Under the pieces are notes generated by a model. That model was not told the origin of the DNA. It worked only from the letters and a program-made list of their open reading frames with translations, and searched no databases. Below, piece by piece: positions 20,072-59,146 of a DNA stretch of 64,000 nucleotides. Position 1 is the stretch's first letter. Every line of letters begins with the position of its first letter. This DNA comes from Ignavibacteria bacterium (GTDB lineage Bacteria; Elusimicrobiota; Endomicrobiia; PHAN01), in contig JBGFRZ010000032.1 in NCBI GenBank assembly GCA_041694835.1, positions 57-64,056 on the forward strand. The letters are read 5' to 3'. Made by a program: the position numbers and the translations under genes.

Positions 20072-21043
20072 TTAACCTGAACGCCCGACCAGATATGCCG
20101 ACTTTCGCTTTTTTTCAATCAGATATCTACCTACAGAAAGACGACGGGATGAAATGTCTGACAAAAAGGCATTTATCCTGAAGAATAAATCAAAATCAAG
20201 CGGGCGACCGAGCCAGCTTCTTACCACCTCATACCTTACTATGTTATTATACCGAAAAAAGTGGGATAAATCAAGAACTCCGTCGGTAACACAACTGACG
20301 ACCGCCTTTTTTGAATACGCGGCAAAAAAATCGTCCAAATCGCAAAGCAACGACGAAAGGTTGTTCAGATGCCTTATGACCGAAGGCCTGAATTTTTCAA
20401 GATATGGAATTATTTTGTTTCTGATTTTGTTTCTGAAAAATTTATCGCTCAAGTTGGTTTTATCAAGTGAATATCTGAATCTATTTTGCGAAAGATATCG
20501 CATTATCTCTTTTTTCTCAAAAAAAAGAAGTGGTCTTGAGACGCAAACCTTCGGTGAAAGCCATCTTTTCAACGGAATGCCGGCAAGACCTTTAAGACCG
20601 ACTCCCCTGAGCAACCACATTATTACCGTCTCGGCGTTGTCGTTCGCGGTGTGGGCGGTCATTATTTTATTGAAACCGTTTTTCACGGCAATATCAAGGA
20701 GATTTTTGTACCTTAAATCCCTTGCCTCTTCTTCGATAGACGCCATTTTCTGGAGATGAATTTTTCTGACGACAAATCTCCATTTGTAAGAACCGGCTAT
20801 TTTTTTTACAATATCCACGTCTTTTTTTATCTCAGAGCGAGGCCTGATAGGGTGATCGAAATAGACAAGGATAGCATCGATATTGAACAATCTCCGATAT
20901 TTTCCCAGAAGGTGAGCAAGACAGACAGAGTCCACCCCGCCTGATATGGAAAGTATTATTCTGTCGTTTTTTCCGATGAGTTCGTACTTCTTGCAGTTTT
21001 CGGCGAATTTTTTATCAAGCATTAAGGTGGGGGTCGAACCCAC
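20072..21043 (-). CDS. tilS: tRNA(Ile)-lysidine synthetase
   Basis: PP-loop SGGVDS; conserved tilS-hpt-ftsH order. Confidence 0.85.
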   Translation of the reverse strand: MGSTPTLMLDKKFAENCKKYELIGKNDRIILSISGGVDSVCLAHLLGKYRRLFNIDAILVYFDHPIRPRSEIKKDVDIVKKIAGSYKWRFVVRKIHLQKMASIEEEARDLRYKNLLDIAVKNGFNKIMTAHTANDNAETVIMWLLRGVGLKGLAGIPLKRWLSPKVCVSRPLLFFEKKEIMRYLSQNRFRYSLDKTNLSDKFFRNKIRNKIIPYLEKFRPSVIRHLNNLSSLLCDLDDFFAAYSKKAVVSCVTDGVLDLSHFFRYNNIVRYEVVRSWLGRPLDFDLFFRINAFLSDISSRRLSVGRYLIEKKRKSAYLVGRSG

Positions 21044-21079
21044 GACCTACGGCTTACTCGCCCCGCACCTTTTTATAAT
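21030..21079 (-). pseudogene. tRNA 3'-half fragment (TAAGCCGTAGGTCGTGGGTTCGACCCCCACC) plus an inverted-repeat spacer downstream of the intact tRNA
   Basis: Matches the anticodon-stem 3' strand through the T arm of the adjacent tRNA, diverges at the acceptor stem, overlaps the tilS 5' end. Confidence 0.4.
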
Positions 21080-21151
21080 TTACCAGGGGTGGGGATTGAA
21101 CCCACGACCTACGGCTTATGAGTCCGCTGCTCTACCACTGAGCTACCCTGG
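21080..21151 (-). tRNA. tRNA with anticodon CAT (elongator Met or lysidine-modified Ile2)
   Basis: Minus-strand sequence GCCAGGGTAGCTCAGTGGTAGAGCAGCGGACTCATAAGCCGTAGGTCGTGGGTTCAATCCCCACCCCTGGTA folds as a cloverleaf (D arm GCTC/GAGC, anticodon loop CTCATAA, T loop GGTTCAATCC). Confidence 0.75.
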
Positions 21152-21200
21152 CATTAAAAGGTGCGGGGCAAGTCCGCTGCTCTACCACTGAGCTACCCTG
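21152..21200 (-). pseudogene. tRNA 5'-half fragment (GCAGGGTAGCTCAGTGGTAGAGCAGCGGACT) plus an inverted-repeat spacer upstream of the intact tRNA
   Basis: Near-identical to positions 1-33 of the adjacent tRNA and ends inside the anticodon loop. Confidence 0.45.
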
Positions 21201-21322
21201 CTAAATTTCAGTATATTGAAACCGTTGACGCTTCGCTAAAACCCGGATTTCGTGTATCTGCACCCGTCTTACGGCGCTAATTTATCAATGAGGGCACCGC
21301 AAGGCAGTGCTCGCACAAAGAC

Positions 21323-21347
21323 CTTTTTCAGCGAGCTCATTATACAA
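21323..21347. repeat. Solo terminal-repeat remnant (TTTTCAGCGAGCTCATTATACA) of the roughly 190-bp palindromic element family
   Basis: Matches the right terminal inverted repeat GGTTTTTCAACGAGCTCATTATAA of the copies at 25250, 36759 and 58959. Confidence 0.35.
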
Positions 21348-21376
21348 AAAACACGATGGGAAAGCAAAAATCCGAA

Positions 21377-23420: not shown

Positions 23421-23606
23421 AAATAGAGGATAGAGATGAGAGAACAGAGGTGATAGTTCAAGAGTTGAGAGTTTAGAGTGTAGAGTTGAGAGATGTCGCC
23501 GGGTATCTCTAAACTCTAAACTAAGTTCTCTAAACTTGTCCTCTCGTCTCTGACCCTTGTCCCCTGACCTCTGACCTCTGTCCTCTGCTGCTCTTGTGCA
23601 CTATCA
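23421..23606. repeat. Low-complexity purine/pyrimidine dyad element A
   Basis: Purine arm AATAGAGGATAGAGATGAGAGAACAGAGG..., centre GTCGCCGGG, pyrimidine arm ...CCTCTGACCTCTGTCCTCTGCTGCTCTTGTGCAC. Confidence 0.7.
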
Positions 23607-23608
23607 CT

Positions 23609-25249
23609 TTATAGACGAATAAGTGACTTCGGCGACTTATTTTCGTTGATGCCGCTTGAAAATTTAATCCTGGACAAACCCGATGCCATCTTCGAGGCCA
23701 TTGCGATAACTATATCGGGAGTAAAAATTAAATCGATATTGCGGCCTTCAAAGAAATCTCCTTTAACTTTAAGCAACGCGTCTTTTTGAGTTGGCATCTC
23801 AACCTCTTTGACGAATATTACATTCTGTAAAGCGATTTCTTTGAACAACTTAAAAGGATTCGTCTCACCGCCAACGAAAGTATTTTTTGTCAACAAACCG
23901 CCTGAATTATTGATAGCATACGCCTCTGTCCAGACAGAGACATATTTGGTCTGACCATCCCGTTCTATTTTCATCTCCGGCGATTTCGCCCAGATATACA
24001 ATTCCTCGCCGCCATCATCCATACTCTCGCTTTTTGCTATGGAGTTGTAAGATTCGTTGATTTTCCATCCGTTCAAAAATATTTCAGATTTCATATCGTC
24101 TTTACCGTCGACAACTTTTCTGCGCGCTTTAATTTCATACGAGTCCTTTCTATTAGTCAGCGTCACTTCGGCCGATTCCAACTTGATGTTATCGCCTCTG
24201 TCGAAAAAATATTTGGGCCAATCGGTCATGGCGTCGGGCAGATTTTCGGAAAACTTTATTTTTGCGTTGCAAATATCCATGCGATGGCCTGTCGTGCCCG
24301 AATATGCATCTTTGAAAAAACCCGCATACCGGTACGAATCGCGTTTTGTTATGTTAACAAACTGAATCGTATCCGCCTCCGGCCTTAAAAACTGCTGTTC
24401 AACCCTCACAAGATTTCCGAATCTATCGGTCAAAGTTCTTCCCGAAGATATATCTGCCTGTTTTATCTCGTTCGTGATGTCGCGCGCAACAACTATGTCG
24501 GCTTTCACATCCCTGATCATCTCCCGAAGTTCTTGTTTTATCTGCGCAAGTTCGGAAGCGACATCATCTCTTTTGGTTTTTTCGTCCTCCTCAACTTTTT
24601 CGTCGCTCTTTTCTTCCAATCTCTTTCCCTCTTCGAGCGCTCCATTGAAAGTCTCCTGCCACTCGTTCTGACGTGATTGAAGTTCATCGGCGGACAAAAT
24701 TTTTTCAATGGGCAATCCTGTTTCATCGAGCTTCGCCAAATTGCCCGATTCGACTGTTATGGACTGGCTCATCATTATATCACTGAACTCGACGGCGCCT
24801 TCAAAAACGACAAGCTCGCCGTATGAATCTATCCCGAAATCCGTCCCTCTGACCGAAGCAACCGCAACAGGGGTCACAACCCTGAACTTCGAGCCTCCAG
24901 CCAGTTTTACCTTCGCTCTTATCTTTCCCATTATCAGTGAAAACACACTTTCGTCTTTTGATGGGCTTTTCACTTCCATCTCGGAGTTTTCACGAACATA
25001 TATCTTTGATTCGCCATCAAGAAGCACTGCCTGCGAGTTGGAGGCGGTCTTTATTTTGTCGAGATGCGAAACTCCGTCCCCCATCCTGGCTTCCCGCCAA
25101 ACCCCGGATCGCATGGCCGCCACAGGGCCAACGGTTGCAATTATTTTTACTTCAGAAAATAAATCAGACGCCGCAAACGCACATATAAAAATCGACACTA
25201 AAATTTTATATCTCATAAAAACCTCCCGCTGCGCGGATATATTTTTCAC
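23609..25249 (-). CDS. Secreted FecR-domain protein with a central coiled-coil/charged region
   Basis: Signal peptide; N-terminal FecR-like fold (VTPVAVASVRGTDF); E/K-rich middle segment. Confidence 0.5.
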   Translation of the reverse strand: MKNISAQREVFMRYKILVSIFICAFAASDLFSEVKIIATVGPVAAMRSGVWREARMGDGVSHLDKIKTASNSQAVLLDGESKIYVRENSEMEVKSPSKDESVFSLIMGKIRAKVKLAGGSKFRVVTPVAVASVRGTDFGIDSYGELVVFEGAVEFSDIMMSQSITVESGNLAKLDETGLPIEKILSADELQSRQNEWQETFNGALEEGKRLEEKSDEKVEEDEKTKRDDVASELAQIKQELREMIRDVKADIVVARDITNEIKQADISSGRTLTDRFGNLVRVEQQFLRPEADTIQFVNITKRDSYRYAGFFKDAYSGTTGHRMDICNAKIKFSENLPDAMTDWPKYFFDRGDNIKLESAEVTLTNRKDSYEIKARRKVVDGKDDMKSEIFLNGWKINESYNSIAKSESMDDGGEELYIWAKSPEMKIERDGQTKYVSVWTEAYAINNSGGLLTKNTFVGGETNPFKLFKEIALQNVIFVKEVEMPTQKDALLKVKGDFFEGRNIDLIFTPDIVIAMASKMASGLSRIKFSSGINENKSPKSLIRL

Positions 25250-25438
25250 TATTATGAAATTGTTGAAAAACCCATCTTTTTCACTTAAAGAGCAGTTTTT
25301 TAACGGTTAAAAGTTTCAATCAGACCGCAAAACTCCTCGCTTTGCTCGTCGGACATTGCGGTCTAAACGATTTCAACTTTTAACCTGAAACTGCCAAATC
25401 GTTCAAAAGATTAAGGTTTTTCAACGAGCTCATTATAA
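25250..25438. mobile_element. Roughly 190-bp imperfect-palindrome element, copy 1 (ERIC/Correia-like MITE candidate)
   Basis: Terminal inverted repeats TATTATGAAATTGTTGAAAAACC ... GGTTTTTCAACGAGCTCATTATAA; nested internal stems GGCAGTTTC/GAAACTGCC, GGTTAAAAGTT/AACTTTTAACC, GACCGCAA/TTGCGGTC. Confidence 0.65.
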
Positions 25439-25491
25439 TAGCAAAAAAAGGGACGAATTGCAAGTGATGTAACAAAAAAAAATTATTGAGT

Positions 25492-29959: not shown

Positions 29960-30046
29960 CCTTTCCCGCCCCGCCTCTCCTCTATTCTCCCGCCTCTATC
30001 TTCTAAACTAAGTTCTCTGAACTTTCCAGTGCGTGCACTGGATAGC
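29960..30046. repeat. Partial low-complexity element B (pyrimidine arm plus CTAAACTAAGTTCTCTGAACTT motif shared with element A)
   Basis: CCTCTCCTCTATTCTCCCGCCTCTATCTTCTAAACTAAGTTCTCTGAACTTT. Confidence 0.45.
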
Positions 30047-30061
30047 GAAACATCAACAATC

Positions 30062-31507
30062 TCATTTTGCCAGTTCTGTTTTTGCTTCCGAAATATCCAC
30101 TCCGGTATTTTCATATTTTCTGATTATCCTTCTTAAGATATCTTTTTTTTCTCTTTCCGAAATACCGCGGTCCTTCAGTTGATAATAATATCGCATTGAA
30201 GTGTCGAACTCAATCTTTCTGTTGTCGATATCGGATTTTGCCGTAGAAATTCTCGGCGCTTTCTTTTCAACCGAAATTTCACGAGGCGGAATATATTCCA
30301 CAGCCGGCGACCTTTCCGCTTTCGGTTCTTCCTTTTCTTTTTCAGACGCAAGTAGTGATTCTAGTTCTTTCTTTAATCTGTCTTTCTCGTTCTCCAACCT
30401 CTCTACTTCTTTCAGGAGTTTTTCATTCTGGGACTTTTCCGTGAACAATTTTTCACTCAACTCTTTTAGTTTTTTGCTTTCGGGCGGTTTTCCGAATCTC
30501 ATATTAAGTGAAATCCTCTGAATGTCTCCGGAGTTCTTTATCCCAACCAAAGGGAATATATAAGAATAATTGAATCCAAACCATTTGAGTGAATGGCCGA
30601 AACCGACAGCAAACCTTCTCAGTTCCCTGCTTCCAAATGTCATGCCGCATCTTATGGCCGTTGCTCCATATTCTCCGAAATCAAAATGCCTTTCAGCCCC
30701 GAATGAAAACACATAGTCTAAGATGTTATTCGAGTACTCCTGAGCTGAAAAATCAGCGGAGAGATTTATCAGGGTCGTGTTCATTGCAAAGCCAATCGTT
30801 GATTTCATTTTTTTCGTGTCACCCGAGTTTTCAAACGACATATCCGGCTGATTGATGTCCTTGATAGAGAGCCCGATTTTGTAGTTTTCAGAGATGTTAT
30901 ACAAGATACCGGCATCCAGAGAGAAGAGCGTCTTCGACTTCCCAGTGAGATGGTCGGTTATGCCCCGTTTTGCTTTGCCAGTTTCATCCACGGAATTAAA
31001 GGAATAATCATCGGTTCCGATAGATTTTCTTAAAATTTTAGCAGTCAATCCGAAAACAATTTTTTTATATATTCCCGAGAGTGAAAAAGCGTAAGTCTCA
31101 TCCTTGTAGAACTCTCCGCCCAATAAAAAATATCCGAAAGCTGGCACATAACCCTTGTAAGGCAGCCCCGCCGCCAAATATACTTCCGACAATTTAGAGC
31201 CATCGGTTAATTTTGGATAAAGCGTTGTATAGGATGTGAATATCTCCGATGTTTTTATATTGTAAAGGCCGGCCGGGTTGTAGAAAATCGACTCGATGTC
31301 ATCCCCTGAAGCAACATAAGTCCCGCATACCCCGGAAGATCGGGAAGCATAAAGACAGGGGATAGTGAATAGCGAATAGCATATAGCGAATAGAGAATAG
31401 AGAATAGAGAATAGAGGATAGAGATTAGAGGTTAGGAAATGGAAATTATTACTCCTCTCCCTATCCGCTCGTCTATCTTCTCTCATCTCCGACCTCTGTC
31501 CTCTCAT
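30062..31507 (-). CDS. Putative outer-membrane beta-barrel protein (NPAGL-type N-terminal motif) with a C-terminal charged coiled-coil extension; start codon uncertain
   Basis: IFYNPAGL motif; beta-barrel-like middle; about 150-aa K/E-rich C-terminus. The first 50 or so codons are read through repeat element C and there is no in-frame ATG or GTG after the repeat. Confidence 0.45.
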   Translation of the reverse strand: MRGQRSEMREDRRADRERSNNFHFLTSNLYPLFSILYSLFAICYSLFTIPCLYASRSSGVCGTYVASGDDIESIFYNPAGLYNIKTSEIFTSYTTLYPKLTDGSKLSEVYLAAGLPYKGYVPAFGYFLLGGEFYKDETYAFSLSGIYKKIVFGLTAKILRKSIGTDDYSFNSVDETGKAKRGITDHLTGKSKTLFSLDAGILYNISENYKIGLSIKDINQPDMSFENSGDTKKMKSTIGFAMNTTLINLSADFSAQEYSNNILDYVFSFGAERHFDFGEYGATAIRCGMTFGSRELRRFAVGFGHSLKWFGFNYSYIFPLVGIKNSGDIQRISLNMRFGKPPESKKLKELSEKLFTEKSQNEKLLKEVERLENEKDRLKKELESLLASEKEKEEPKAERSPAVEYIPPREISVEKKAPRISTAKSDIDNRKIEFDTSMRYYYQLKDRGISEREKKDILRRIIRKYENTGVDISEAKTELAK

Positions 31508-31520
31508 CTCTGACCTCTCA
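31359..31520. repeat. Low-complexity purine/pyrimidine dyad element C
   Basis: GATAGTGAATAGCGAATAGCATATAGCGAATAGAGAATAGAG...GAGGTTAGGAAATGGAAATT...CTCTCATCTCCGACCTCTGTCCTCTCATCTCTGACCTCTCA. Confidence 0.7.
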
Positions 31521-31535
31521 CATTAGTACCCTCTT

Positions 31536-34500
31536 TCATCTTGATACCGTCACAGTTCCGTTTATTACTTTGTCGTCGGATTCAATCTGATAGATATAAA
31601 TTCCCGAGGGCACTTTGTTTCCGAATTCGTCGTCGCCATCCCACCTTAAAGATGTTTCACGGTTTGGTCCCCTTTTATTCAGTTTTTTGACAAACCGCCC
31701 CATTTTGTCGAATATAAATCCGACGACTCTTTCTTCAATTCCCGGCGGGCCGTCAAAATTTATAATCAAAAAATCATTTTTATTGTCGCCGTTCGGGGTT
31801 ATTATTTTCGGATAAACGTCATCTTTTCCTACCGAGAATGTTGAGCGATTCGTTAGTTTTAGTTGAAATTTTCCCAGAACTGACGCTGCCACTGAAATCG
31901 TCTTGTTGAATCTGTCGACGGCACCACCGAATCTGATCCATCTCACTCCGTTGAACCAGTAAACGGCATACTCGCTTTCATAAGAACCCGGGGACATCAC
32001 CGCAGAACCCCTGTCAAAGTAAGTAAACGATATATTGAAAGTTTGTTCTTTTGGAACATTTTTTTCTTTATTTGATTTTATATCCCGAAGTGCTACAACA
32101 AAAGATTTTACCACGCGGCCGATTTTTTCCTCAGGCACTTCTGTAATCCTGAGCACTGAGTTCTCAGGCAAAATGGCCGATGTCTCAACAAACAAGTCTT
32201 TATTGTCGCTCATTACTATTATAACCGGCGCAGTCTTCGATGCCACTATTGCCGACGGCAGGCTTTCGTTTGAATATATATCCACAGCCTTTATCGTGTA
32301 ATAATAAACGTTTTTTTTTGTGTCTTGAGAAAATTCGTTCGACTTTAACGGAAGCATCGTTATTTTTTCGTATATCCCATCCATCGAAGTGCTCCTGTAA
32401 ACAAGATAACCGTCGATGTCGTAAATCGGGCTCAGGTCCTCGTTGTATTTAACTTCATCCCAAAATATTTGAAAAATCCCGCCCGAAAAACTCCCGCGAA
32501 CTCCGGTGGGAGCAAGTGGGGGCATTTTATCGACGACCTTATCGGTCATAACGTTGACAATATCAGTAGGGGCGGTTATTATTCCGTCGCCATTGAAGCC
32601 ATATAGACGGTAGTAGTATGTGGTGGAATGGCTCAAATTTCCATCGGTATAAGTTGAAGAAGAACCAGATATATTGTCGCTTACAACTGAAAAAAATAAG
32701 CCGTCAAGGGATCTCTCGAGTCTAAACTTGCTGGAGCCGCCCGTCGGAGATTGCCAGGAGAGCGTAATTGAATTTTTTGTTTTGGCTATACTCCCCAAAT
32801 TTCCGGGCGGATTGGCCAGGGTGTATTTTGAAACTACCGATGAACCGAATGAAACGCCGCTTGCATTCCCCGCTTTGATATATCTTGAATATTGTGTATT
32901 GGGTTCTAAACCGATTTCGTTCCAAGATATTGTTTCGTTTCCTTCAAGATTTTTCAACAGATGATTATCACCGGCTCTATAAATCTGATAATATGTCGCA
33001 GATGATGTTATCTCCCATGTCCAGTTGATCGCCACCGTGCTAACGGCTACCCCGCGAAAACCCAACGGCTCTGAAGGAATTGCCGGAAGTGTGATAGTTG
33101 AGATTGTTGTATCATATATCGTGGGTATACCCTCGCTATTGAACGCCTGAACCTTGTAGTAATATGTAGTCGCAGGCTCTAACCCTGCCGAGTCAGTAAA
33201 TGTTGTGCCCGTTTGGTTGTTTGCAAATGAGCTCAAGGTAAAGGTAGAGGTGAAGAAGTTATTCGTTGAGCGCAATACTCCCCATCTGGTTGATGCCGGA
33301 TTTCCGTTATTGCTCCATGTGATTTCTATTGAATGTGAAGTCCTCTTTAAAACATAACTATCAACGGGTGGCATCGCCATGGTATATCTTGAAGCGACGT
33401 TGGATGAAGATATTGATACGCTATTATATGCCGCCACATACCTGCTATAATTAGTATTAGCGGAAAAATTAGTTTCAAGCCAGATCGTCGTTCCGTGCGG
33501 CAACTCTGATAGCAATGCGTTTGTGGAACTAAATATCCTGAAACCATCTTCGTCAGGGGAGTTGTCTTTCCATGACCATAAAATCGAACCTGTCGACAAA
33601 ACCATGCCGCTAAACTCCGAAGGAGCGGATGGAACTCCGATGGGGCGGGTTGAAACGACGGAGGAAAAGGCACTTATAAAAATCTGCGGTGGAGCATCGT
33701 AAGAGTTCATCTTGTAAAAATATGTCGTTCCGTTGGTGACAGAGGTATCAACATAAGTATTGCTACGCGTAGTTCCTATAAGGGAATAGGTATTTCCGTC
33801 GGTTGAACGGTGAATTTCGTAGTAATCGAAGTCAAGATAACCGAGCTGCCCGAGCATATCATTCCAAAAAAGCTCAACCAACCCGCTTGAAGCCACTGAT
33901 TTGAGCCCGGTTGGAGGAGCGGGAACAATATCAAGGGCATAGCTGAACGCCTGTGTGAGCGACACAGTCGGCTCATCGATGGGAGAGATATTTCCGTCGG
34001 CGTCTTTTGATTTAATTGAAAAATAATATGTTGAAGAAGGGAAAAGACCGGAAATTCCGGTAATCTCTTCGGAGCCTGGAGATTGGGGGGACGGTGTATT
34101 ATTAAGCGAAGTGGCGACACTCCACCATGCAGTGGTATCTCCCAAAAGTGAGTTTATGGAAAACGTGGCGTATTTTATGATGTACTCTGAAACTTTCTTG
34201 TTCTGAGGAATATCTCCGGGGGCAATCCATGAGAGTTTGATCTCCCCTTCGCTCGCCCCTGTTACAGCAACAATGGATGTAACCGCTCTCGGCGGATAAA
34301 TATCCGCGATATAGTGTGAATTTTCATCCGACCATACGCTCTTCAACAAGCCCGAATCTATTGAAGCAACTGAAAAATAATATGTCGTTCTTATGGCAAG
34401 TTTTTTTATCAATATACTGTTAGTCGTGCCGATTCTTTTGGGCCTCGGATAGTTTCCCGAAAACGGTGTCGCCCATTGCGGACTCACGACATAACTTGAA

Positions 34501-36581: not shown

Positions 36582-36758
36582 TGTTTCGGTAGCCCAGCCG
36601 GCATCCGTTCAAACCCGAACCCCGTCGCCTTTCAACGACGGATTGTCCCATAACGCGGGATTTAGCCCTGTTGGCTTTGCGTCCCCCGGTTTCCCGGCAT
36701 CCCGACACAAAATCGGAACGTTCCCATATGACCAGCAGGGAAGGTTTGCCTTTGTCGC

Positions 36759-36946
36759 TATAATGAGATTATTGAAAAACCCATCTTTTTCACTTAAAGG
36801 GCAGTTTCTTAACGGTTAAAAGTTTCAATCAGACCGCAAAACTCCTCGCTTTGCTCGTCAGACATTGCGGTCTAAACGATTTCAACTTTTAACCTGAAAC
36901 TGCCAAATCGTTCAAAAGATTAAGGTTTTTCAACGAGCTCATAATA
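36759..36946. mobile_element. Roughly 190-bp imperfect-palindrome element, copy 2
   Basis: Differs from copy 1 at only a few positions; terminal repeats TATAATGAGATTATTGAAAAACC ... GGTTTTTCAACGAGCTCATAATA. Confidence 0.65.
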
Positions 36947-36996
36947 CAATATATATAGTGAAAATAATTTTGTTTGTCAAGGTTTTTTTCAAAACT

Positions 36997-39672: not shown

Positions 39673-41515
39673 TCTCTGCGTCTATAGAAACACTAACCGA
39701 ATAATTCCTTGAGCTCCGAACAGCAGAAATAATTTTCGAAAAATCGCCGTTTCCCTTCAAAATTATTTTCCAGAGATACCGCTTCCTTAATTTCTTCCGA
39801 TAATCACTTGATGGACCGACGATTTCCGCCTCTAAGTTGTTTTCGTTTAATATCTTTTCCATGAGAGTGGACGTTTTTTCGGCGTATAACTTGGCCAACT
39901 TATCATTTTTGCTCCTGAAGGTCAGCGTTATCAGACGGGCGTAAGGAGGGTATTTGAGTTTTTTTCTTTGTTTCAACTCTTCGGAATAAAACTCCTCATA
40001 ATTTAATTTGAAGGGGTAGTAATCCGGGAAGTGGGTTTCGACATAGAGCTCGGGCTCTTCGGCTTTCTTTGATAAAAGTTCGCTATAATCCGCCATCTTC
40101 AAAAATATTTTTTCATTGGAAAAATACTCCGGATGCATGAAATCGAAATCCGCATTCAATAAAATGACAAGTCCTATATCAGACGACACCATATAATGCC
40201 TGGGAGGATGTGTGGCGATGATGAAATCGGCTGATAACGACTCTTTATTTTTATTGCTTTTGTATGAATTCCTGGCGTCGAGATCGTAACGGGTTATAGT
40301 CGCACACGGATAAAGCTGTCTTAAGGACTCCTCGATTTTTTGCGTTCCAAAAGAAAGAGCGGTAAGATTCCGAGAGCCGCAGATATTGCATAATGGGGCA
40401 TAGACGATCTGTCTGCCACAGTAGTTGCATCGGAGTATTTTTTCTTTCCCGGCGATGTAGAGCGTGAGGGGTATGTCGCAGTCTTCGCATTTCAAAATCC
40501 TTTTGCATGAGCCGCAGTAGTATCCCCCGGAAAAACCTTTCAGCGGATAGTGTATAAGCGTGGTAAGCTTTTTGATGTAATTTCTGTCGATACTTTCCTT
40601 TAAAATTGAGATAATGTCATAATTCCTGCTCTTATATTTTTTAACGATTTCCCAATGATTTTTTTTATACGCATCGGGAGGTTTTTCCGTCAACTTTTTC
40701 ACGCCGCCTTCTTTGATTTTGGAATAGATGTCGACTGAGAACGCGGATCCTCCGAAAATAACTCTTATCTTATATCGCTCCGATTTTTTGAGCGCCACGT
40801 TTCTTGTGTTGTAATAAGGGCGCCGTCCATCCTTGTGGGCGTAGTCGTACTCTCTGTCAACAATTATGGTCCCGAGGTTGTTGAGTGGCAAAAACACGCT
40901 TCTTCTTGTGCCTATCACAAAACTGCATTCGTTCAAGAGTAGTTTTTCGAATGTTTCCGATTGCATTTTTTTTGATAAATCCGAACTCCAGACAACGGGC
41001 TCGAATCTGGCGTAATAATTTTTCGCCCAAACAACATCCGAAAGCGTTGGTAGAACAAGAAGCACGCTTTTTTTTGCGCTGAGCCCATCTGATATTTCTT
41101 TTTTGTAAAAATCATATCTTTCATCGTTCCCGAGGAATGCGGCGAAAAGAGTACTTTTGTCTTTTCCATTATTTATCTCTGGATTTTTTGATGCGGTTTT
41201 TATGTGTTTAAAATCAATCGGATATATCAGATTCAACACCGCGCCAACGGAAACAAAGTAATGCTCGCTCAAGGCATTTGCGAATGCGAGGGCTTTTTCG
41301 TCAATAACCGGGGTTTCGTCCACTGATGAGATTACTTCCTTTAATTGATGCTTAAGATGAGGTTCTTTTTTGCCAACATCGACGACATATCCAAGGCGGG
41401 ACGTGCTTCCGAAAGGGACATTCACCCTTGAACCGACAGATAGATTTATGCTCACAGGGACAGCATAATCAAACTCTCCGTCGGGAGGCTTTGGAAATAC
41501 TACTTTTGCAAACAT
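39662..41515 (-). CDS. PriA-like protein with degenerate ATPase motifs (primosomal protein N' homolog lacking Walker A/B and the arginine finger)
   Basis: PriA-type N-terminal 3'-DNA-binding domain (FDYAVP...RVNVPFG), motif Ia LLVLPTL, PriA Cys-rich zinc module (CGSC...CEDC...CNYC...CNIC); Walker A position reads GNDER, DEEH reads DREY, the GRAGR region is absent. Confidence 0.65.
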   Translation of the reverse strand: MFAKVVFPKPPDGEFDYAVPVSINLSVGSRVNVPFGSTSRLGYVVDVGKKEPHLKHQLKEVISSVDETPVIDEKALAFANALSEHYFVSVGAVLNLIYPIDFKHIKTASKNPEINNGKDKSTLFAAFLGNDERYDFYKKEISDGLSAKKSVLLVLPTLSDVVWAKNYYARFEPVVWSSDLSKKMQSETFEKLLLNECSFVIGTRRSVFLPLNNLGTIIVDREYDYAHKDGRRPYYNTRNVALKKSERYKIRVIFGGSAFSVDIYSKIKEGGVKKLTEKPPDAYKKNHWEIVKKYKSRNYDIISILKESIDRNYIKKLTTLIHYPLKGFSGGYYCGSCKRILKCEDCDIPLTLYIAGKEKILRCNYCGRQIVYAPLCNICGSRNLTALSFGTQKIEESLRQLYPCATITRYDLDARNSYKSNKNKESLSADFIIATHPPRHYMVSSDIGLVILLNADFDFMHPEYFSNEKIFLKMADYSELLSKKAEEPELYVETHFPDYYPFKLNYEEFYSEELKQRKKLKYPPYARLITLTFRSKNDKLAKLYAEKTSTLMEKILNENNLEAEIVGPSSDYRKKLRKRYLWKIILKGNGDFSKIISAVRSSRNYSVSVSIDAESAA

Positions 41516-41520
41516 ATTTC

Positions 41521-41565
41521 GCTATTTGCTATTTGCTATTCGCTATTCGCTATCTATAGCGCGAC
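41521..41565. repeat. Short low-complexity element D (GCTATTTGCTATTTGCTATTCGCTATTCGCTATCTATAGCG)
   Basis: CTATTCGCTATTC unit shared with elements C, E and G; supplies the last codons and the TAG stop of the SpoIID-like gene. Confidence 0.5.
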
Positions 41566-42984: not shown

Positions 42985-43005
42985 AATTTTAGCGGCGAAG
43001 GCAGA

Positions 43006-43250
43006 AGTGCACAAGAGCGCAAGAGCACAAGTCAGAGGACAGAGTTCAGGGAACAGAGAACAGAGGTCAGAGGCTAGAGGCGAGGGACAAGAGGTTAGGG
43101 AATGGAAATTTTTATTCAATTTCTTGTCCCCTATCCTCTATTCTCTATACGCTATTCTCTCACCTCTGACCTCTCACCTCTCATCTCTCATCTCTATCCT
43201 CTATTCACTATTCGCTATTCGCTGTCCTACAGTCTCTAATCTCTGCTGCT
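43006..43250. repeat. Low-complexity purine/pyrimidine dyad element E
   Basis: GCACAAGAGCGCAAGAGCACAAGTCAGAGGACAGAG...GGTTAGGGAATGGAAATTTTTATTC...TCACCTCTGACCTCTCACCTCTCATCTC...CTATTCACTATTCGCTATTCGC; the central GGAAATGGAAATT motif is shared with element C. Confidence 0.7.
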
Positions 43251-43808
43251 TTTTTGTTCTACCCGTTTACCTCTCTCTCCCTTGTCGCTTTCCTGTCTGC
43301 TGAATATGCATCCGCAGTATTTCTGACTGTAGAGCCCAAGTTTTTTTATCTTCTCTTTTGCTTCGCGGTATTTCTTCCTCACATCGACATAAATAAATTC
43401 AACATTCCATTTTTGCGAAAGAGTCTCCGCTATTCCTCTTATTAAATCGTGCTTTTGATAAGGACTTGCAAGAAGTGTCGTCGAAAAGCAGTCGAATATT
43501 TTGTCGCCTCTAAAGCAACGTCTCGCCGTTTCTTCGAGTCGGTTTATATAACAATACTTGCATCTATCAGCCGAAGCTTTCGCCGCATCAAGCCACTTTT
43601 CCATGCTATGAGCCGGGATATTTATAGATGAGATTCCTTTAAGGGCGTTGAATTTTTCAAGGGCGTCAAAACGGAGATATGATTCCTGTTCGGGGTGTAT
43701 GTTCGGATTATACCATAAACCGTAGACATCAAAATCCATCTCTATTCGCTCCAGCATCGGAGCGGTGCAGATAGCACAACACTGATGAAGCAAAAGTTTC
43801 TTTCTCAC
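43236..43808 (-). CDS. queH: Epoxyqueuosine reductase QueH (DUF208)
   Basis: LLLHQCCAICT N-terminal Cys cluster, YVDVRK..GLY..KYCGC; GTG start; last 5 or so codons run into element E. Confidence 0.8.
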   Translation of the reverse strand: MRKKLLLHQCCAICTAPMLERIEMDFDVYGLWYNPNIHPEQESYLRFDALEKFNALKGISSINIPAHSMEKWLDAAKASADRCKYCYINRLEETARRCFRGDKIFDCFSTTLLASPYQKHDLIRGIAETLSQKWNVEFIYVDVRKKYREAKEKIKKLGLYSQKYCGCIFSRQESDKGERGKRVEQKSSRD

Positions 43809-54270: not shown

Positions 54271-54377
54271 GCACAAGGCACAAGAGCATAAGTCAAGAGC
54301 ATAAGTGCACAAGAGCACAGTAAAAACCTCACCTCTCATCTCTATGCTCTATCTTCTATTCACTATTTGTTATTTGC
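54271..54377. repeat. Low-complexity element F (GCACAAGAGCATAAG module followed by TCACCTCTCATCTCTAT and CTATTCACTATTTG modules)
   Basis: Shares modules with elements A, E, G and H. Confidence 0.6.
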
Positions 54378-55874
54378 TTTGTATATCTTTTTAGAAAGTT
54401 CGATGGCCTTGAAAAGCCCCTTTGCCTTGTTCAATGTTTCCTGATACTCCCTCTCGGGGACCGAGTTGGCGACAATCCCGGCGCCAGCCTGAACGTATGC
54501 CGTTTTGTTCTTGTACACAATGGTTCTTATAGTTATCGCCATGTCCATATTGCCGCTGTATGAAAAATATCCGACGGCTCCGGCATAGGGACCCCGCCCG
54601 ACGGTTTCGAGTTCGTTTATTATCTGCATTGCGCGCACTTTAGGGGCGCCGCTAACGGTGCCCGCCGGGAAGCACGCCCTGAAAAGGTCGAAGGAATCTA
54701 TTTTTTTTCTCAGCTTTCCCGTAACTGTCGAAACCATATGTATCACGTGCGAATACTTCTCTATGTTCATAAGCTCCGTAACCCTGATGGATTTTAAATC
54801 GCAGACCCTTGAAAGATCGTTTCTGCCCAAATCTACAAGCATTATGTGTTCCGCTTTTTCCTTCGGATCCGATGTCAGGGCGTTTATCAATTTGATGTCG
54901 TCTTCGGCGGTTTTTCCCCTGTAACGCGTCCCCGCTATGGGCTTTGTCACGGCGATTTCATCCTCTCTCCTTACGAGTATTTCAGGCGAGGAGCCAATGA
55001 TATAAAAATTTTTCAGATTGAAGTAATACATATAAGGGGATGGATTGACGATTCTGAGCGCTCTGTATATGTCAAAAGTCCTGGATGTAGTTTCGACATC
55101 AAACCTCTGAGAAAGAACCACCTGTATTATATCGCCGCTTTTTATATGTTTTTTAGCCGTGGCCACGTTTTCTATGAACTTTTTTTTCGAGATGTTCGGC
55201 CGAATTTTTGCATGACTTTTAGAAGTGCTGATTAACCGACATAGAGAGCGCGTTTTAATCCTTTTTATCGCGTCGTCGATATTTTTGCACGCATCCTTGT
55301 AAAGCGCAGGACTCATTTTTTTTGTTCTTACATCAATGCAAGACACTATTTTCATGGTATGATAAAGATGGTCGAATACTATCATGTTGTTGGTAATCAT
55401 GAAAACCATCTCGGGCAGTTTAAGATCGCATGGCGGAAAAGCTGGCAGGTCCTCGATGAATTTCACTATATCGTAGGCGGCATAACCCACCGCACCGCCC
55501 CAGAATCTTGGAAGCTTTTCCGATTGAAAAGGAAGATAACCTTTCATTAGATTTTTTAGCTCTTCTATAGGATCTGAGTTTTTTTTCTTTGAAGAAAGTT
55601 TTCCTTGCACATATACCGACACCTCGCCGCTCTTCGAAATAAAAAGAGTATCGGGACGGTGCGATATAAAAGAATACCTACCCCACCTCTCACCTCCCTC
55701 GACACTTTCAAGGAGACACGAATATTTTTCTCCGGCGGCGACTTTAAGATATACGGAAACCGGCGTCTCAAAGTCCGCTATTATCTCCTTGTAAACCGGA
55801 ATGAGATTGTATTTTCCGACAAGCTTTTTTACTTCGTTGAAAGTCAGCGAAAAATCACGCGATGTATTTTTCAT
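54363..55874 (-). CDS. trpE: Anthranilate synthase component I
   Basis: 503 aa; chorismate-binding family motifs (GAVGYFSYSGNMDMAITIRT). Confidence 0.9.
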   Translation of the reverse strand: MKNTSRDFSLTFNEVKKLVGKYNLIPVYKEIIADFETPVSVYLKVAAGEKYSCLLESVEGGERWGRYSFISHRPDTLFISKSGEVSVYVQGKLSSKKKNSDPIEELKNLMKGYLPFQSEKLPRFWGGAVGYAAYDIVKFIEDLPAFPPCDLKLPEMVFMITNNMIVFDHLYHTMKIVSCIDVRTKKMSPALYKDACKNIDDAIKRIKTRSLCRLISTSKSHAKIRPNISKKKFIENVATAKKHIKSGDIIQVVLSQRFDVETTSRTFDIYRALRIVNPSPYMYYFNLKNFYIIGSSPEILVRREDEIAVTKPIAGTRYRGKTAEDDIKLINALTSDPKEKAEHIMLVDLGRNDLSRVCDLKSIRVTELMNIEKYSHVIHMVSTVTGKLRKKIDSFDLFRACFPAGTVSGAPKVRAMQIINELETVGRGPYAGAVGYFSYSGNMDMAITIRTIVYKNKTAYVQAGAGIVANSVPEREYQETLNKAKGLFKAIELSKKIYKANNK

Positions 55875-56241: not shown

Positions 56242-56340
56242 AAGAACTCCAATTCCCCGCCTTGACAGGAACACCGTCCACATGGACTCCAATGCCATTG
56301 AATACGGAGTCCGCAGCGGCTGGGGAAATCTGGAACCATA

Positions 56341-56550
56341 GAGCACAAGAACACAAGTCAGAGGTCAGAGGTGAGAGATGAGAGAATAGCGTATAGAGGA
56401 TAGAGGATAGCAAATAGCAAATAGCGAATAGTGGTTGGTGACTGGTGACTTGTGGCTGGAGGAAATGAGCAACGAGCCACGAGCCACTAATCCTCTGTCC
56501 TCTGTCCTCTGTCCTCTGTTCTCTGTCCCCTGTTCTCTGCTCTCGGCGGT
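56341..56550. repeat. Low-complexity purine/pyrimidine dyad element G
   Basis: GAGCACAAGAACACAAGTCAGAGGTCAGAGGTGAGAGATGAGAGAATAGCG...GGATAGCAAATAGCAAATAGCGAATAG...CCTCTGTCCTCTGTCCTCTGTCC. Confidence 0.7.
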
Positions 56551-56568
56551 AATATTTTTCATTCGATG

Positions 56569-57585
56569 TTATATCCTGATCGGCACGCCTCTCTTTTTGA
56601 GGTAAAGTTTTAATTCTTTTATGCCGATTTCTCTAAAGTGAAAAAGAGAGGCGGCGAGGCATGCCGAAGCTTTAGCCTCCGCGAAACCCTCGTAAAAATC
56701 TCCTTTTGAACCGGCTCCGCCCGAAGCTATGACTGGTATCGAGACTGCCTCAACCACGGATTTCGTCAGTTCGATATCATAACCGTCTTTTGTGCCGTCC
56801 TTGTCCATACTCGTGAGTAAAATCTCGCCCGCTCCCATTTTTTCAACGTATCTCGCCCATCTCACAACATCTAATCCAGTATTCTTTCTTCCGCCGTAAG
56901 TATAAACCTCCCATCTTAATCGAGAGGTGAGAGGTGAGAGGTCAGAGGTCAGAGATGAGAGGTGAGTTTTTTCTCTGTCCCCCGTTCTCTGTTCTCTGTT
57001 CTCTGTCTTCTGTCCCCTGTCCTCTGTCCTCTGTTCTCTGTCCTCTGTCCTCTGTCCTCTGTTTTCTGTCCTCTGCTGCTCTTGTGCACTTGTGCTCTTG
57101 TGCACTTGTGCTCTGCCACTCTGTTCTCTGTCCTCTGTCCTCTGTTCTCTGTCTTCTGTCCTCTGTCCTCTGTTCTCCGCTCTCTGTCTTTTTGCGTCAA
57201 TTGCTATGACTATGCATTGGCTCCCAAACTTTTTTGCCGCTCCTTTTATGAAATCCGGATTTTCTACGGCGGAGGTGTTGATTGAAACTTTGTCGGCGCC
57301 GTTGGCCAGAAGCGTCTGAATATCTTTTAAATTTCTTACCCCGCCTCCAACGGTAAGTGGTATGAAGACGCTTTGCGCCGTTTTTTTTACGACATTTAAA
57401 AGTATCTTTCTTTTTTCGCAAGATGCGGTTATGTCGAGAAAAACAAGCTCGTCGGCGCTTTCTTTGTCGTACTTCTTTGCGACTTCAACAGGGTCGCCCG
57501 CGTCCCTCAAATTCAAAAACCTCGTTCCCTTTACGACGCGACCGGCATTTACGTCCAAACAAGGAATTATTCTTTTAGTAAGCAT
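56569..57585 (-). CDS. hisF: Imidazole glycerol phosphate synthase cyclase subunit HisF carrying an in-frame insertion of about 91 aa low-complexity sequence
   Basis: N-terminal residues 1-133 and C-terminal residues 225-338 are a complete HisF (RIIPCLDV...AIDAKR // [13 protein letters not shown]...IASGGAG). The intervening [23 protein letters not shown]... stretch is encoded by repeat element H. Confidence 0.85.
56921..57192. repeat. Low-complexity element H, inserted in-frame inside hisF
   Basis: GAGAGGTGAGAGGTCAGAGG purine block followed by about 230 nt of (CTCTGTCCTCTGTTCTCTGT)n plus a CTCTTGTGCACTTGTGCTCTTGTGCAC module; all three forward frames are open. Confidence 0.75.
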
Positions 57586-58958: not shown

Positions 58959-59146
58959 TATATTGAGATTATTGAAAAACCCATCTTTTTCACTTAAAGG
59001 GCAGTTTCTTAACGGTTAAAAGTTTCAATCAGACCGCAAAACTCCTCGCTTTGCTCGTCAGACATTGCGGTCTAAACGATTTCAACTTTTAACCTGAAAC
59101 TGCCAAATCGTTCAAAAAATTAAGGTTTTTCAACGAGCTCATATTA
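58959..59146. mobile_element. Roughly 190-bp imperfect-palindrome element, copy 3 (between hisH and hisB, overlapping the hisB stop codon)
   Basis: Near-identical to copies 1 and 2; terminal repeats TATATTGAGATTATTGAAAAACC ... GGTTTTTCAACGAGCTCATATTAA. Confidence 0.65.

Follow-up and report, generated by a model that had tools for sequence, protein, structure and literature searches.

A 178-bp palindromic repeat of Elusimicrobiota, probably a previously undescribed MITE family

Correia elements (NEMIS/CREE) of Neisseria duplicate TA, and IS200/IS605 and REP elements have neither target duplications nor terminal inverted repeats. Among insertion sequences, the ISfinder descriptions give duplications of 3-4 bp for the IS3 family, 2-3 bp for the IS30 family and 2-4 bp for subgroups of the IS5 family. 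Prokaryotic MITEs are defined by a size of 50-800 bp, inverted repeats of at least 10-15 bp, duplications of 2-10 bp and no transposase (PMC11602168). Correia copies are co-transcribed as a long hairpin that is cleaved by RNase III at its paired ends, and an action at the level of the RNA is assumed for ERIC copies (PMC10969869). A search of the literature on MITEs or palindromic repeats in Elusimicrobia returned no relevant paper. Here we describe a repeat present in three full copies in the window, the whole stretch of 64,000 nucleotides analysed in this work. We consider that it represents, with a probability of about 0.8, a previously undescribed Elusimicrobiota MITE family, non-autonomous, 178 bp long and moved in trans by a DDE transposase. 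The copies in the window are the following:

25255-25432, + strand, MITE copy A, 178 bp, TGAAATTGTTGAAAAACC...GGTTTTTCAACGAGCTCA
36764-36941, + strand, MITE copy B, 178 bp, from sequence and alignment
58964-59141, + strand, MITE copy C, 178 bp, from sequence and alignment

The length between the TGA...TCA termini was exactly 178 bp in the three copies, and their pairwise identity (96.6-99.4%) agrees with the near-identical copies reported at these places by the sequence-only reading. Copies B and C differ at one position, and copy A differs from them at 5-6. Alignment of the three copies extended over ~190 columns before identity collapsed; in all pairs, similarity ended no more than 5 bp beyond the termini, and the flanks were unrelated. 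Since the flanks outside the element fail to align, the copies did not arise by segmental duplication of larger regions, the origin that would have spoken against independent insertion. A fourth copy, 92% identical to those of the window, was located at L017:10002-10178 (contig JAZDKR010000012.1 of GCA_043802785.1, another Elusimicrobiota MAG). The terminal inverted repeats are imperfect and ~18 bp long (TGAGATTATTGAAAAACC vs the reverse complement TGAGCTCGTTGAAAAACC; the element end is also given as TGAKMTYRTTGAAAAACC), which match at 15 of 18 positions in copies A, B and C and at 16 of these positions in the L017 copy. The inverted repeats announced from the sequence are thus present, and the sizes first given for the element (~190 bp) and for its repeats (24 bp) have to be reduced, as they took in, at either side, the duplication and 2 bp of flank. 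The right-end 19-mer, allowing up to 3 mismatches, had six occurrences in the window, where 0.05 would be expected from shuffled sequences; these sites are both ends of copy A, both ends of copy B, the right end of copy C and a supposed remnant that is described below. A search of the window with an nhmmer profile of the copies detected nothing further.

The element has no coding capacity: stop codons break all six frames, and the longest open stretch covers 38 codons and has no start. The Rfam search that had been recommended, 6S RNA included, gave no family on the element at the gathering score; with E values up to 5, it returned only hairpin-shaped chance matches to plant microRNA models, far below threshold. 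A hammerhead-like reading of the apical CUGACGAG...CGAGGAG, made by eye, was dropped for lack of a stem II and of an Rfam match. In its size, in having inverted repeats, site-varying duplications and no transposase ORF, and in its dispersal over three unrelated sites in 64 kb plus one in a second genome, the element corresponds to the prokaryotic definition of a MITE. The proposal that it is MITE-like is therefore upheld by its inverted ends, its lack of coding capacity and the near-identical copies at unrelated intergenic sites.

The junctions of the four full copies with the surrounding DNA were as follows (flanks in lower case, hyphens on both sides of the duplicated triplet):

Copy A, left cacTA-TTA-TGAAATT, right GAGCTCA-TTA-TAatag
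Copy A, duplication TTA at 25252-25254 (left) and 25433-25435 (right), read from the sequence
Copy A, maximal direct repeat ATTAT at 25251-25255 and 25432-25436
Copy A, TA flanks at 25250-25251 and 25436-25437
Copy B, left cgcTA-TAA-TGAGATT, right GAGCTCA-TAA-TAcaat
Copy B, duplication TAA at 36761-36763 (left) and 36942-36944 (right)
Copy C, left tgcTA-TAT-TGAGATT, right GAGCTCA-TAT-TAaaga
Copy C, duplication TAT at 58961-58963 (left) and 59142-59144 (right)
L017 copy, tgTA-TAA-TGATATT...GATATCA-TAA-TAtcc

Inspection of the flanks for target-site duplications, as had been advised, revealed that all four copies are flanked by perfect direct repeats (TTA, TAA and TAT in the window and TAA in L017), always within an A/T-only target of the form TA-WWW-TA. 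If the three variable positions can hold only A or T, all four copies would match by chance with a probability of ~(1/8)^4. The triplets of copy C are direct but not inverted repeats of each other, which identifies them as a duplication lying outside the terminal repeat. The adjoining A and T fit both the direct and the inverted reading, so that the maximal direct repeat reaches 5 bp in each copy (AWWWT; ATTAT, ATAAT and ATATT in the window) and the duplication is of 3 bp or at most 5 bp; a 3-bp duplication corresponds to TGA...TCA ends, and a 5-bp duplication to GAG...CTC ends. The duplication rule rests on four full copies, and its length is ambiguous between 3 and 5 bp. Two other partitions of the junction, a 2-bp TA duplication of the IS630/mariner type and a longer terminal repeat including the variable triplet, were discarded on copy C, with its direct but not inverted triplets. 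These duplications point to staggered cuts by a DDE-type transposase acting in trans, a class that we infer. Such an enzyme, encoded outside the window, would bind both ends of the element and cut at TA-WWW-TA, with duplication of the central 3 bp (or of the 5 bp AWWWT should the ambiguous A and T be part of the target).

A run of T followed by G (or GC) directly precedes TA-WWW-TA at three insertion sites:

25436-25449, copy A, flank read on the - strand
21340-21351, short relative of the element (see below)
L017:9990-10001, fourth copy

The sequence TTTTTTGTATAA is identical at the relative that starts at 21339 and at the L017 copy. This T-run plus G may be an extended target preference resembling an extended -10, or it may be a coincidence in A/T-rich spacers.

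Comparison with described elements showed likenesses and differences in each case. As Correia elements, the repeat belongs to the 100-200-bp non-coding elements with terminal inverted repeats that are mostly intergenic and near genes, and it uses A/T-rich targets containing TA, hence the resemblance of the junctions to -10 boxes. It differs from Correia in its duplication (TA vs 3 or 5 bp), in lacking an internal promoter-like site (Correia subtypes have tested promoters and an IHF site) and in its host phylum, the contrast in sequence resting on the ERIC-side searches (E. coli, plasmid and phage). With ERIC it shares the imperfect palindrome, a similar size and a position in intergenic regions of operons that are transcribed, in the present case probably; unlike ERIC, it belongs to another phylum, has site-specific duplications and TG...CA termini, and finds no match in the genomes of E. 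coli, which carry ERIC. Indeed, blastn searches against plasmids, phages and 5,426 E. coli genomes gave no match to the element. The TGA...TCA ends, the 3-bp duplication and the A/T-rich, nearly palindromic target are reminiscent of IS3- or IS30-type elements. Against a relationship with IS3, IS30 or IS5, no nucleotide match was obtained among plasmids, phages and E. coli, which hold many members of these families, and the fit is poorer if the duplication is 5 bp, with GAG...CTC ends. Finally, Rickettsia palindromic elements (RPE) are also small mobile palindromic repeats, and the genome studied here likewise tolerates repeats inside genes; however, all four MITE copies are intergenic and have frames full of stops, and the intragenic repeat in this case is a heptamer element in hisF.

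Each copy is an imperfect palindrome over nearly its full length, and the nested stems previously noticed in the sequence were recovered by RNA folding of copy B, with -74 kcal/mol (z = -8.3) for the - strand and -62 kcal/mol (z = -8.2) for the + strand. One strand, the same in both genomes, folded 10-12 kcal/mol better regardless of the direction of the neighbouring genes. The L017 copy and copy B show ~14 differences, eight of which constitute four pairs altered on both sides: a G-C to U-A change in the terminal repeat (G/C to T/A at both ends), a C-G to U-A change in the second stem, for which copy A holds the U·G intermediate, and two adjacent A-U pairs that became U-A and C-G in L017. In this comparison, 97.7% of cells were paired and the observed values were reached in 4 of 500 column shuffles, while control structures slid by 1-3 columns contained 0-1 doubly changed pairs. 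None of the five private changes of copy A was compensated. Judged from two lineages, these data are suggestive, not decisive, of a palindrome kept by selection. Co-adaptation of both ends to one transposase would account for the pair in the terminal repeat, and the internal pairs may reflect selection on the hairpin, either as RNA or as single-stranded DNA. Intrastrand template switching yields paired changes in quasi-palindromes without selection, and the internal pairs may alternatively have arisen by such a selection-free 'correction'.

All sizeable ORFs of the window are on the - strand, and copies A, B and C each lie between co-directional genes, as had been described; the gene labels assigned at that time (FecR, FG-GAP, AddB-like for the PD-(D/E)XK nuclease, hisB and hisH) also match the domain hits. 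Copy A is followed downstream by a FecR-domain gene and preceded upstream by a gene for 1471 aa with no Pfam match. Copy B has the PD-(D/E)XK nuclease gene upstream and a gene for 1681 aa with FG-GAP, fn3 and CHU_C domains downstream. Copy C separates hisB (IGPD), upstream, from hisH (GATase), downstream. The regulatory features found around copies A and B are the following:

25435-25463, - strand, promoter-like TTGCAA-17-TATTAT preceded by TG, upstream of the FecR-like gene, from the consensus scan
36992-36964, - strand, promoter-like TTGAAA-17-AATTAT, in the 50-nt spacer upstream of copy B, from the scan
36981-36953, - strand, promoter-like TTGACA-17-TATATA, by eye; rejected by the scan, as position 6 is not T
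36585-36760, - strand, c-di-GMP-I riboswitch aptamer, 39.5 bits vs a gathering score of 35

In the promoter-like site at copy A, the -35 is host DNA and the -10 is made of flank and the last base of the duplication. Copy A thus looks like an insertion on or just behind the -10 of the FecR-like gene's own predicted promoter; transcripts from this site would have their 5' end in the terminal repeat, with the full hairpin ahead of the GGGAGG RBS and the ATG at 25216. Copy B is located between the nuclease stop (36997) and the riboswitch, whose 5' end is separated from it by only the 3-bp duplication (36761-36763). Transcripts from either promoter-like sequence at 36953-36992 would run through copy B into this riboswitch, which belongs to the leader of the gene for 1681 aa, whose product has a CHU_C signal for type IX secretion. 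The aptamer itself contains two ~55-nt insertions in hairpin loops. Copy C comes directly after hisB, whose stop codon (59144-59146) combines the TA flank with the final base of the right-hand duplication, and the insertion enlarged the hisB-hisH spacer from ~34 to 215 nt. The genes of the window and its promoter-like sites all read through the copies, and we infer that A, B and C are probably transcribed with their neighbouring genes. Each copy would then add a hairpin of ~178 nt, to the FecR-like leader (A), to the leader ahead of the riboswitch (B) and to the hisB-hisH junction (C), and by analogy with Correia and ERIC elements it is plausible that RNase III could cut this hairpin or that the latter could alter mRNA stability. 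The default reading is that of selfish DNA tolerated in intergenic spacers.

The fourth copy came to light when protein representatives were searched with the translation of the element's longest open frame. It is inserted at an unrelated site with its own TAA/TAA duplication, and its neighbouring genes are on the '+' strand of the element, i.e., in the opposite orientation to that of the window. The gene V1833_01390, annotated as a 41-aa 'hypothetical protein' (L017:10001-10126), is an artefact gene call across this copy: its ATG combines the last duplicated base with the TG at the end of the element, and a deletion of 1 nt in the L017 copy joins two MITE frames. Housekeeping genes have a third-position GC of 44-54% in the window and of 22-38% in the second genome; GC content is 44% and 35% for the two genomes and 37% for the element in both hosts. 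An identity of 92% in non-coding DNA between such different genomes argues for horizontal spread.

Searches elsewhere gave no additional copies. A profile search with the translated element frames returned V1833_01390 again and nothing else. Exact-match scans with the right-end 19-mer over genome, metagenome and viral contig collections yielded 14 loci that we regard as chance matches, as they matched only the 19-20-mer, one of them at 22 of 23 bases; one of the 14, L003 (nhmmer E = 0.0025), was rejected as a copy because it is inside a coding gene. Internal segments of the element had no match in the viral contig collection. No copy and no longer element with the same ends appeared in 10 kb more of the L017 contig or in ~80 kb from relatives reached via HisB or the restriction-modification methylase of that contig, and the ~280 kb of loci retrieved contained no autonomous element or transposase with matching ends. 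Within the window, the ~50 ORFs included no transposase, integrase or Y1 domain. The nearest relative of the window HisB is 75% identical, and the named matches are Elusimicrobia/Elusimicrobiota MAGs. An empty site was sought through these HisB relatives and none was found: at the hisB-hisH junction, the nearest one carries an unrelated 235-nt hairpin, and the others have no adjacent hisH.

The paired changes and the genomic setting bear on what the element does and how it moves. It is conceivable, but in our opinion unlikely, that the element is mobile and yet is kept mainly for its RNA hairpin, as a portable cis-acting RNA module such as an RNase III processing site, a cistron stabiliser or insulator, or a leader structure, i.e., a functional analogue of Correia and ERIC. 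Such a role would accommodate the four doubly changed pairs between distant hosts, with nearly all other differences keeping or improving pairing, as well as the advantage of the same strand by 10-12 kcal/mol in both genomes, a strand that is the mRNA sense in the three window copies and in the short relative. It would also have precedents, since RNase III cuts Correia transcripts and ERIC alters mRNA decay (PMC10969869). However, the L017 copy is reversed relative to its neighbours, which leaves no fixed sense orientation, and the common orientation of the four elements of the window has a probability of ~0.125 by chance. Moreover, the five private changes of copy A are all uncompensated, template switching can produce paired changes without selection, and the pair in the terminal repeats is explained by recognition by the transposase. 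A more elaborate proposal, which we hold to be distinctly improbable, is that of a promoter-proximal mobile hairpin module, in which the TA-WWW-TA target, with the T-run and G that often precede it as they do in extended -10 regions, would steer the element into -10 boxes or just behind them and the hairpin, placed at the 5' ends of leaders, would be selected and horizontally exchanged among Elusimicrobiota genomes. If this were true, a conserved 178-nt hairpin of the RNase III type would be placed ahead of leaders, including that of a c-di-GMP riboswitch.

Regarding the junction hexamers, the sequence-only reading had suggested that a -10-like hexamer in the terminal repeats makes the element a mobile outward promoter. 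TATAAT-like hexamers do occur at every junction, the copies are upstream of genes, and Correia and several other MITEs have sigma-70-like promoters (PMC10969869). Nevertheless, each hexamer is formed by the flank TA, the duplicated triplet and the first T of the element, and reads TATTAT, TATAAT or TATATT according to the site; it differs among copies because target and duplication differ among insertion sites, and only one of its bases belongs to the element. The -35/-10 consensus scan found no pair inside the element, no -35 partner within it at 16-18 bp and no outward site at the gene-proximal ends. The match at the copy A junction has its host -35 on the gene-distal side and reads into the element, and copy C, within the his operon, is at a place where a promoter is not needed. 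An outward promoter is thus very unlikely. Even harder to sustain, and in our estimation close to negligible, is the idea of a palindromic repeat copied via single-stranded DNA by a Y1 (HUH) enzyme, either REP/RAYT-like or derived from IS200/IS605, the mobiliser for which a search had been suggested. The strong hairpin potential, as single-stranded DNA or RNA, and paired changes by which the hairpin is preserved would suit it; on the contrary, the site-specific duplications in the four copies, the terminal inverted repeats extending to the very ends and a size of 178 bp, far larger than that of REP units, speak against it, and no Y1 gene is present in the window. Altogether, the evidence favours a MITE moved in trans by a DDE-type transposase.

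The solo terminal-repeat remnant proposed in the earlier description turned out to be something different, since the segment 21322-21344 corresponds to the 5' end of a 114-nt hairpin:

21226-21339, - strand, diverged short relative of the element, 114 nt, 5' TGAGCTCGCTGAAAAAGG ... CCGGGTTTTAGCGAAGCGTCA 3'

In this relative, TGAGCTCGCTGAAAAAGG starts at 21339 and pairs with CCGGGTTTTAGCGAAGCGTCA, which ends at 21226, so that it has its own inverted ends, with a different interior. It folds as an extended hairpin (-47.8 kcal/mol, z = -2.8) and is flanked by the stop of a 404-aa ORF and by a tRNA-Met region; a matching flanking duplication was not found around it. The neighbouring tRNA-Met(CAT) gene (21080-21153, - strand) is nested within partial copies of itself spanning 21026-21200: its 5' half recurs exactly over 30 nt at 21171-21200, and its 3' half recurs over 31 nt with 94% identity at 21026-21056. 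The two spacers in between form a 21-nt inverted repeat (21056-21076 and 21153-21173). This arrangement resembles a tRNA gene placed inside the anticodon loop of another copy that is no longer complete, the outer halves being without the 3' acceptor strand.

A second repeat system, unrelated to the MITE, occupies many intergenic spacers of the window and consists of arrays of 7-nt units, of AGAGNNN type followed by an inverted type (CTCTGTC / CTCTCAC). These heptamer arrays are located at:

23425-23602, heptamer array
29975-30025, heptamer array
31351-31541, heptamer array
41501-41553, heptamer array
42995-43265, heptamer array, folding as a long hairpin (-106.7 kcal/mol, z = -6.3)
54281-54378, heptamer array
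56340-56565, heptamer array
56922-57219, heptamer array, in frame inside the hisF ORF 56569-57585 (- strand)
L015:2090-2170, heptamer array

Similar heptamers are found between hisB and hisH in the closest HisB relative. The in-frame array of hisF results in a HisF of 338 aa vs ~250, with a low-complexity insert of ~90 aa between AIDAKR and WEVYTYGG that splits the Pfam His_biosynth match in two; this insert is reminiscent of the in-frame Rickettsia palindromic elements. In other Elusimicrobia contigs, a transposase of the IS110 family (DEDD_Tnp_IS110, Transposase_20) was observed ~5 kb upstream of an MvaI/BcnI-type restriction-modification pair:

L019:269-1300, IS110-family transposase
L020:91-1122, IS110-family transposase
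L022:269-1300, IS110-family transposase

The context of the MvaI/BcnI-type pair is different in each genome, and the pair thus appears to be mobile.

The finding leaves general concepts unchanged, and its novelty lies in an undescribed family of the well-known MITE kind. For the organisms concerned, the data point to a transposon system that was recently exchanged horizontally inside an uncultured phylum. The element marks repeats that break assemblies in Elusimicrobiota MAGs and has already been mis-annotated once (V1833_01390). Furthermore, its copies provide testable cases of the effects of MITEs on leaders, on riboswitch function and on operon polarity, at three housekeeping transcription units with a very stable predicted hairpin, namely the FecR-like gene, the riboswitch-controlled type IX secretion substrate and the his operon.
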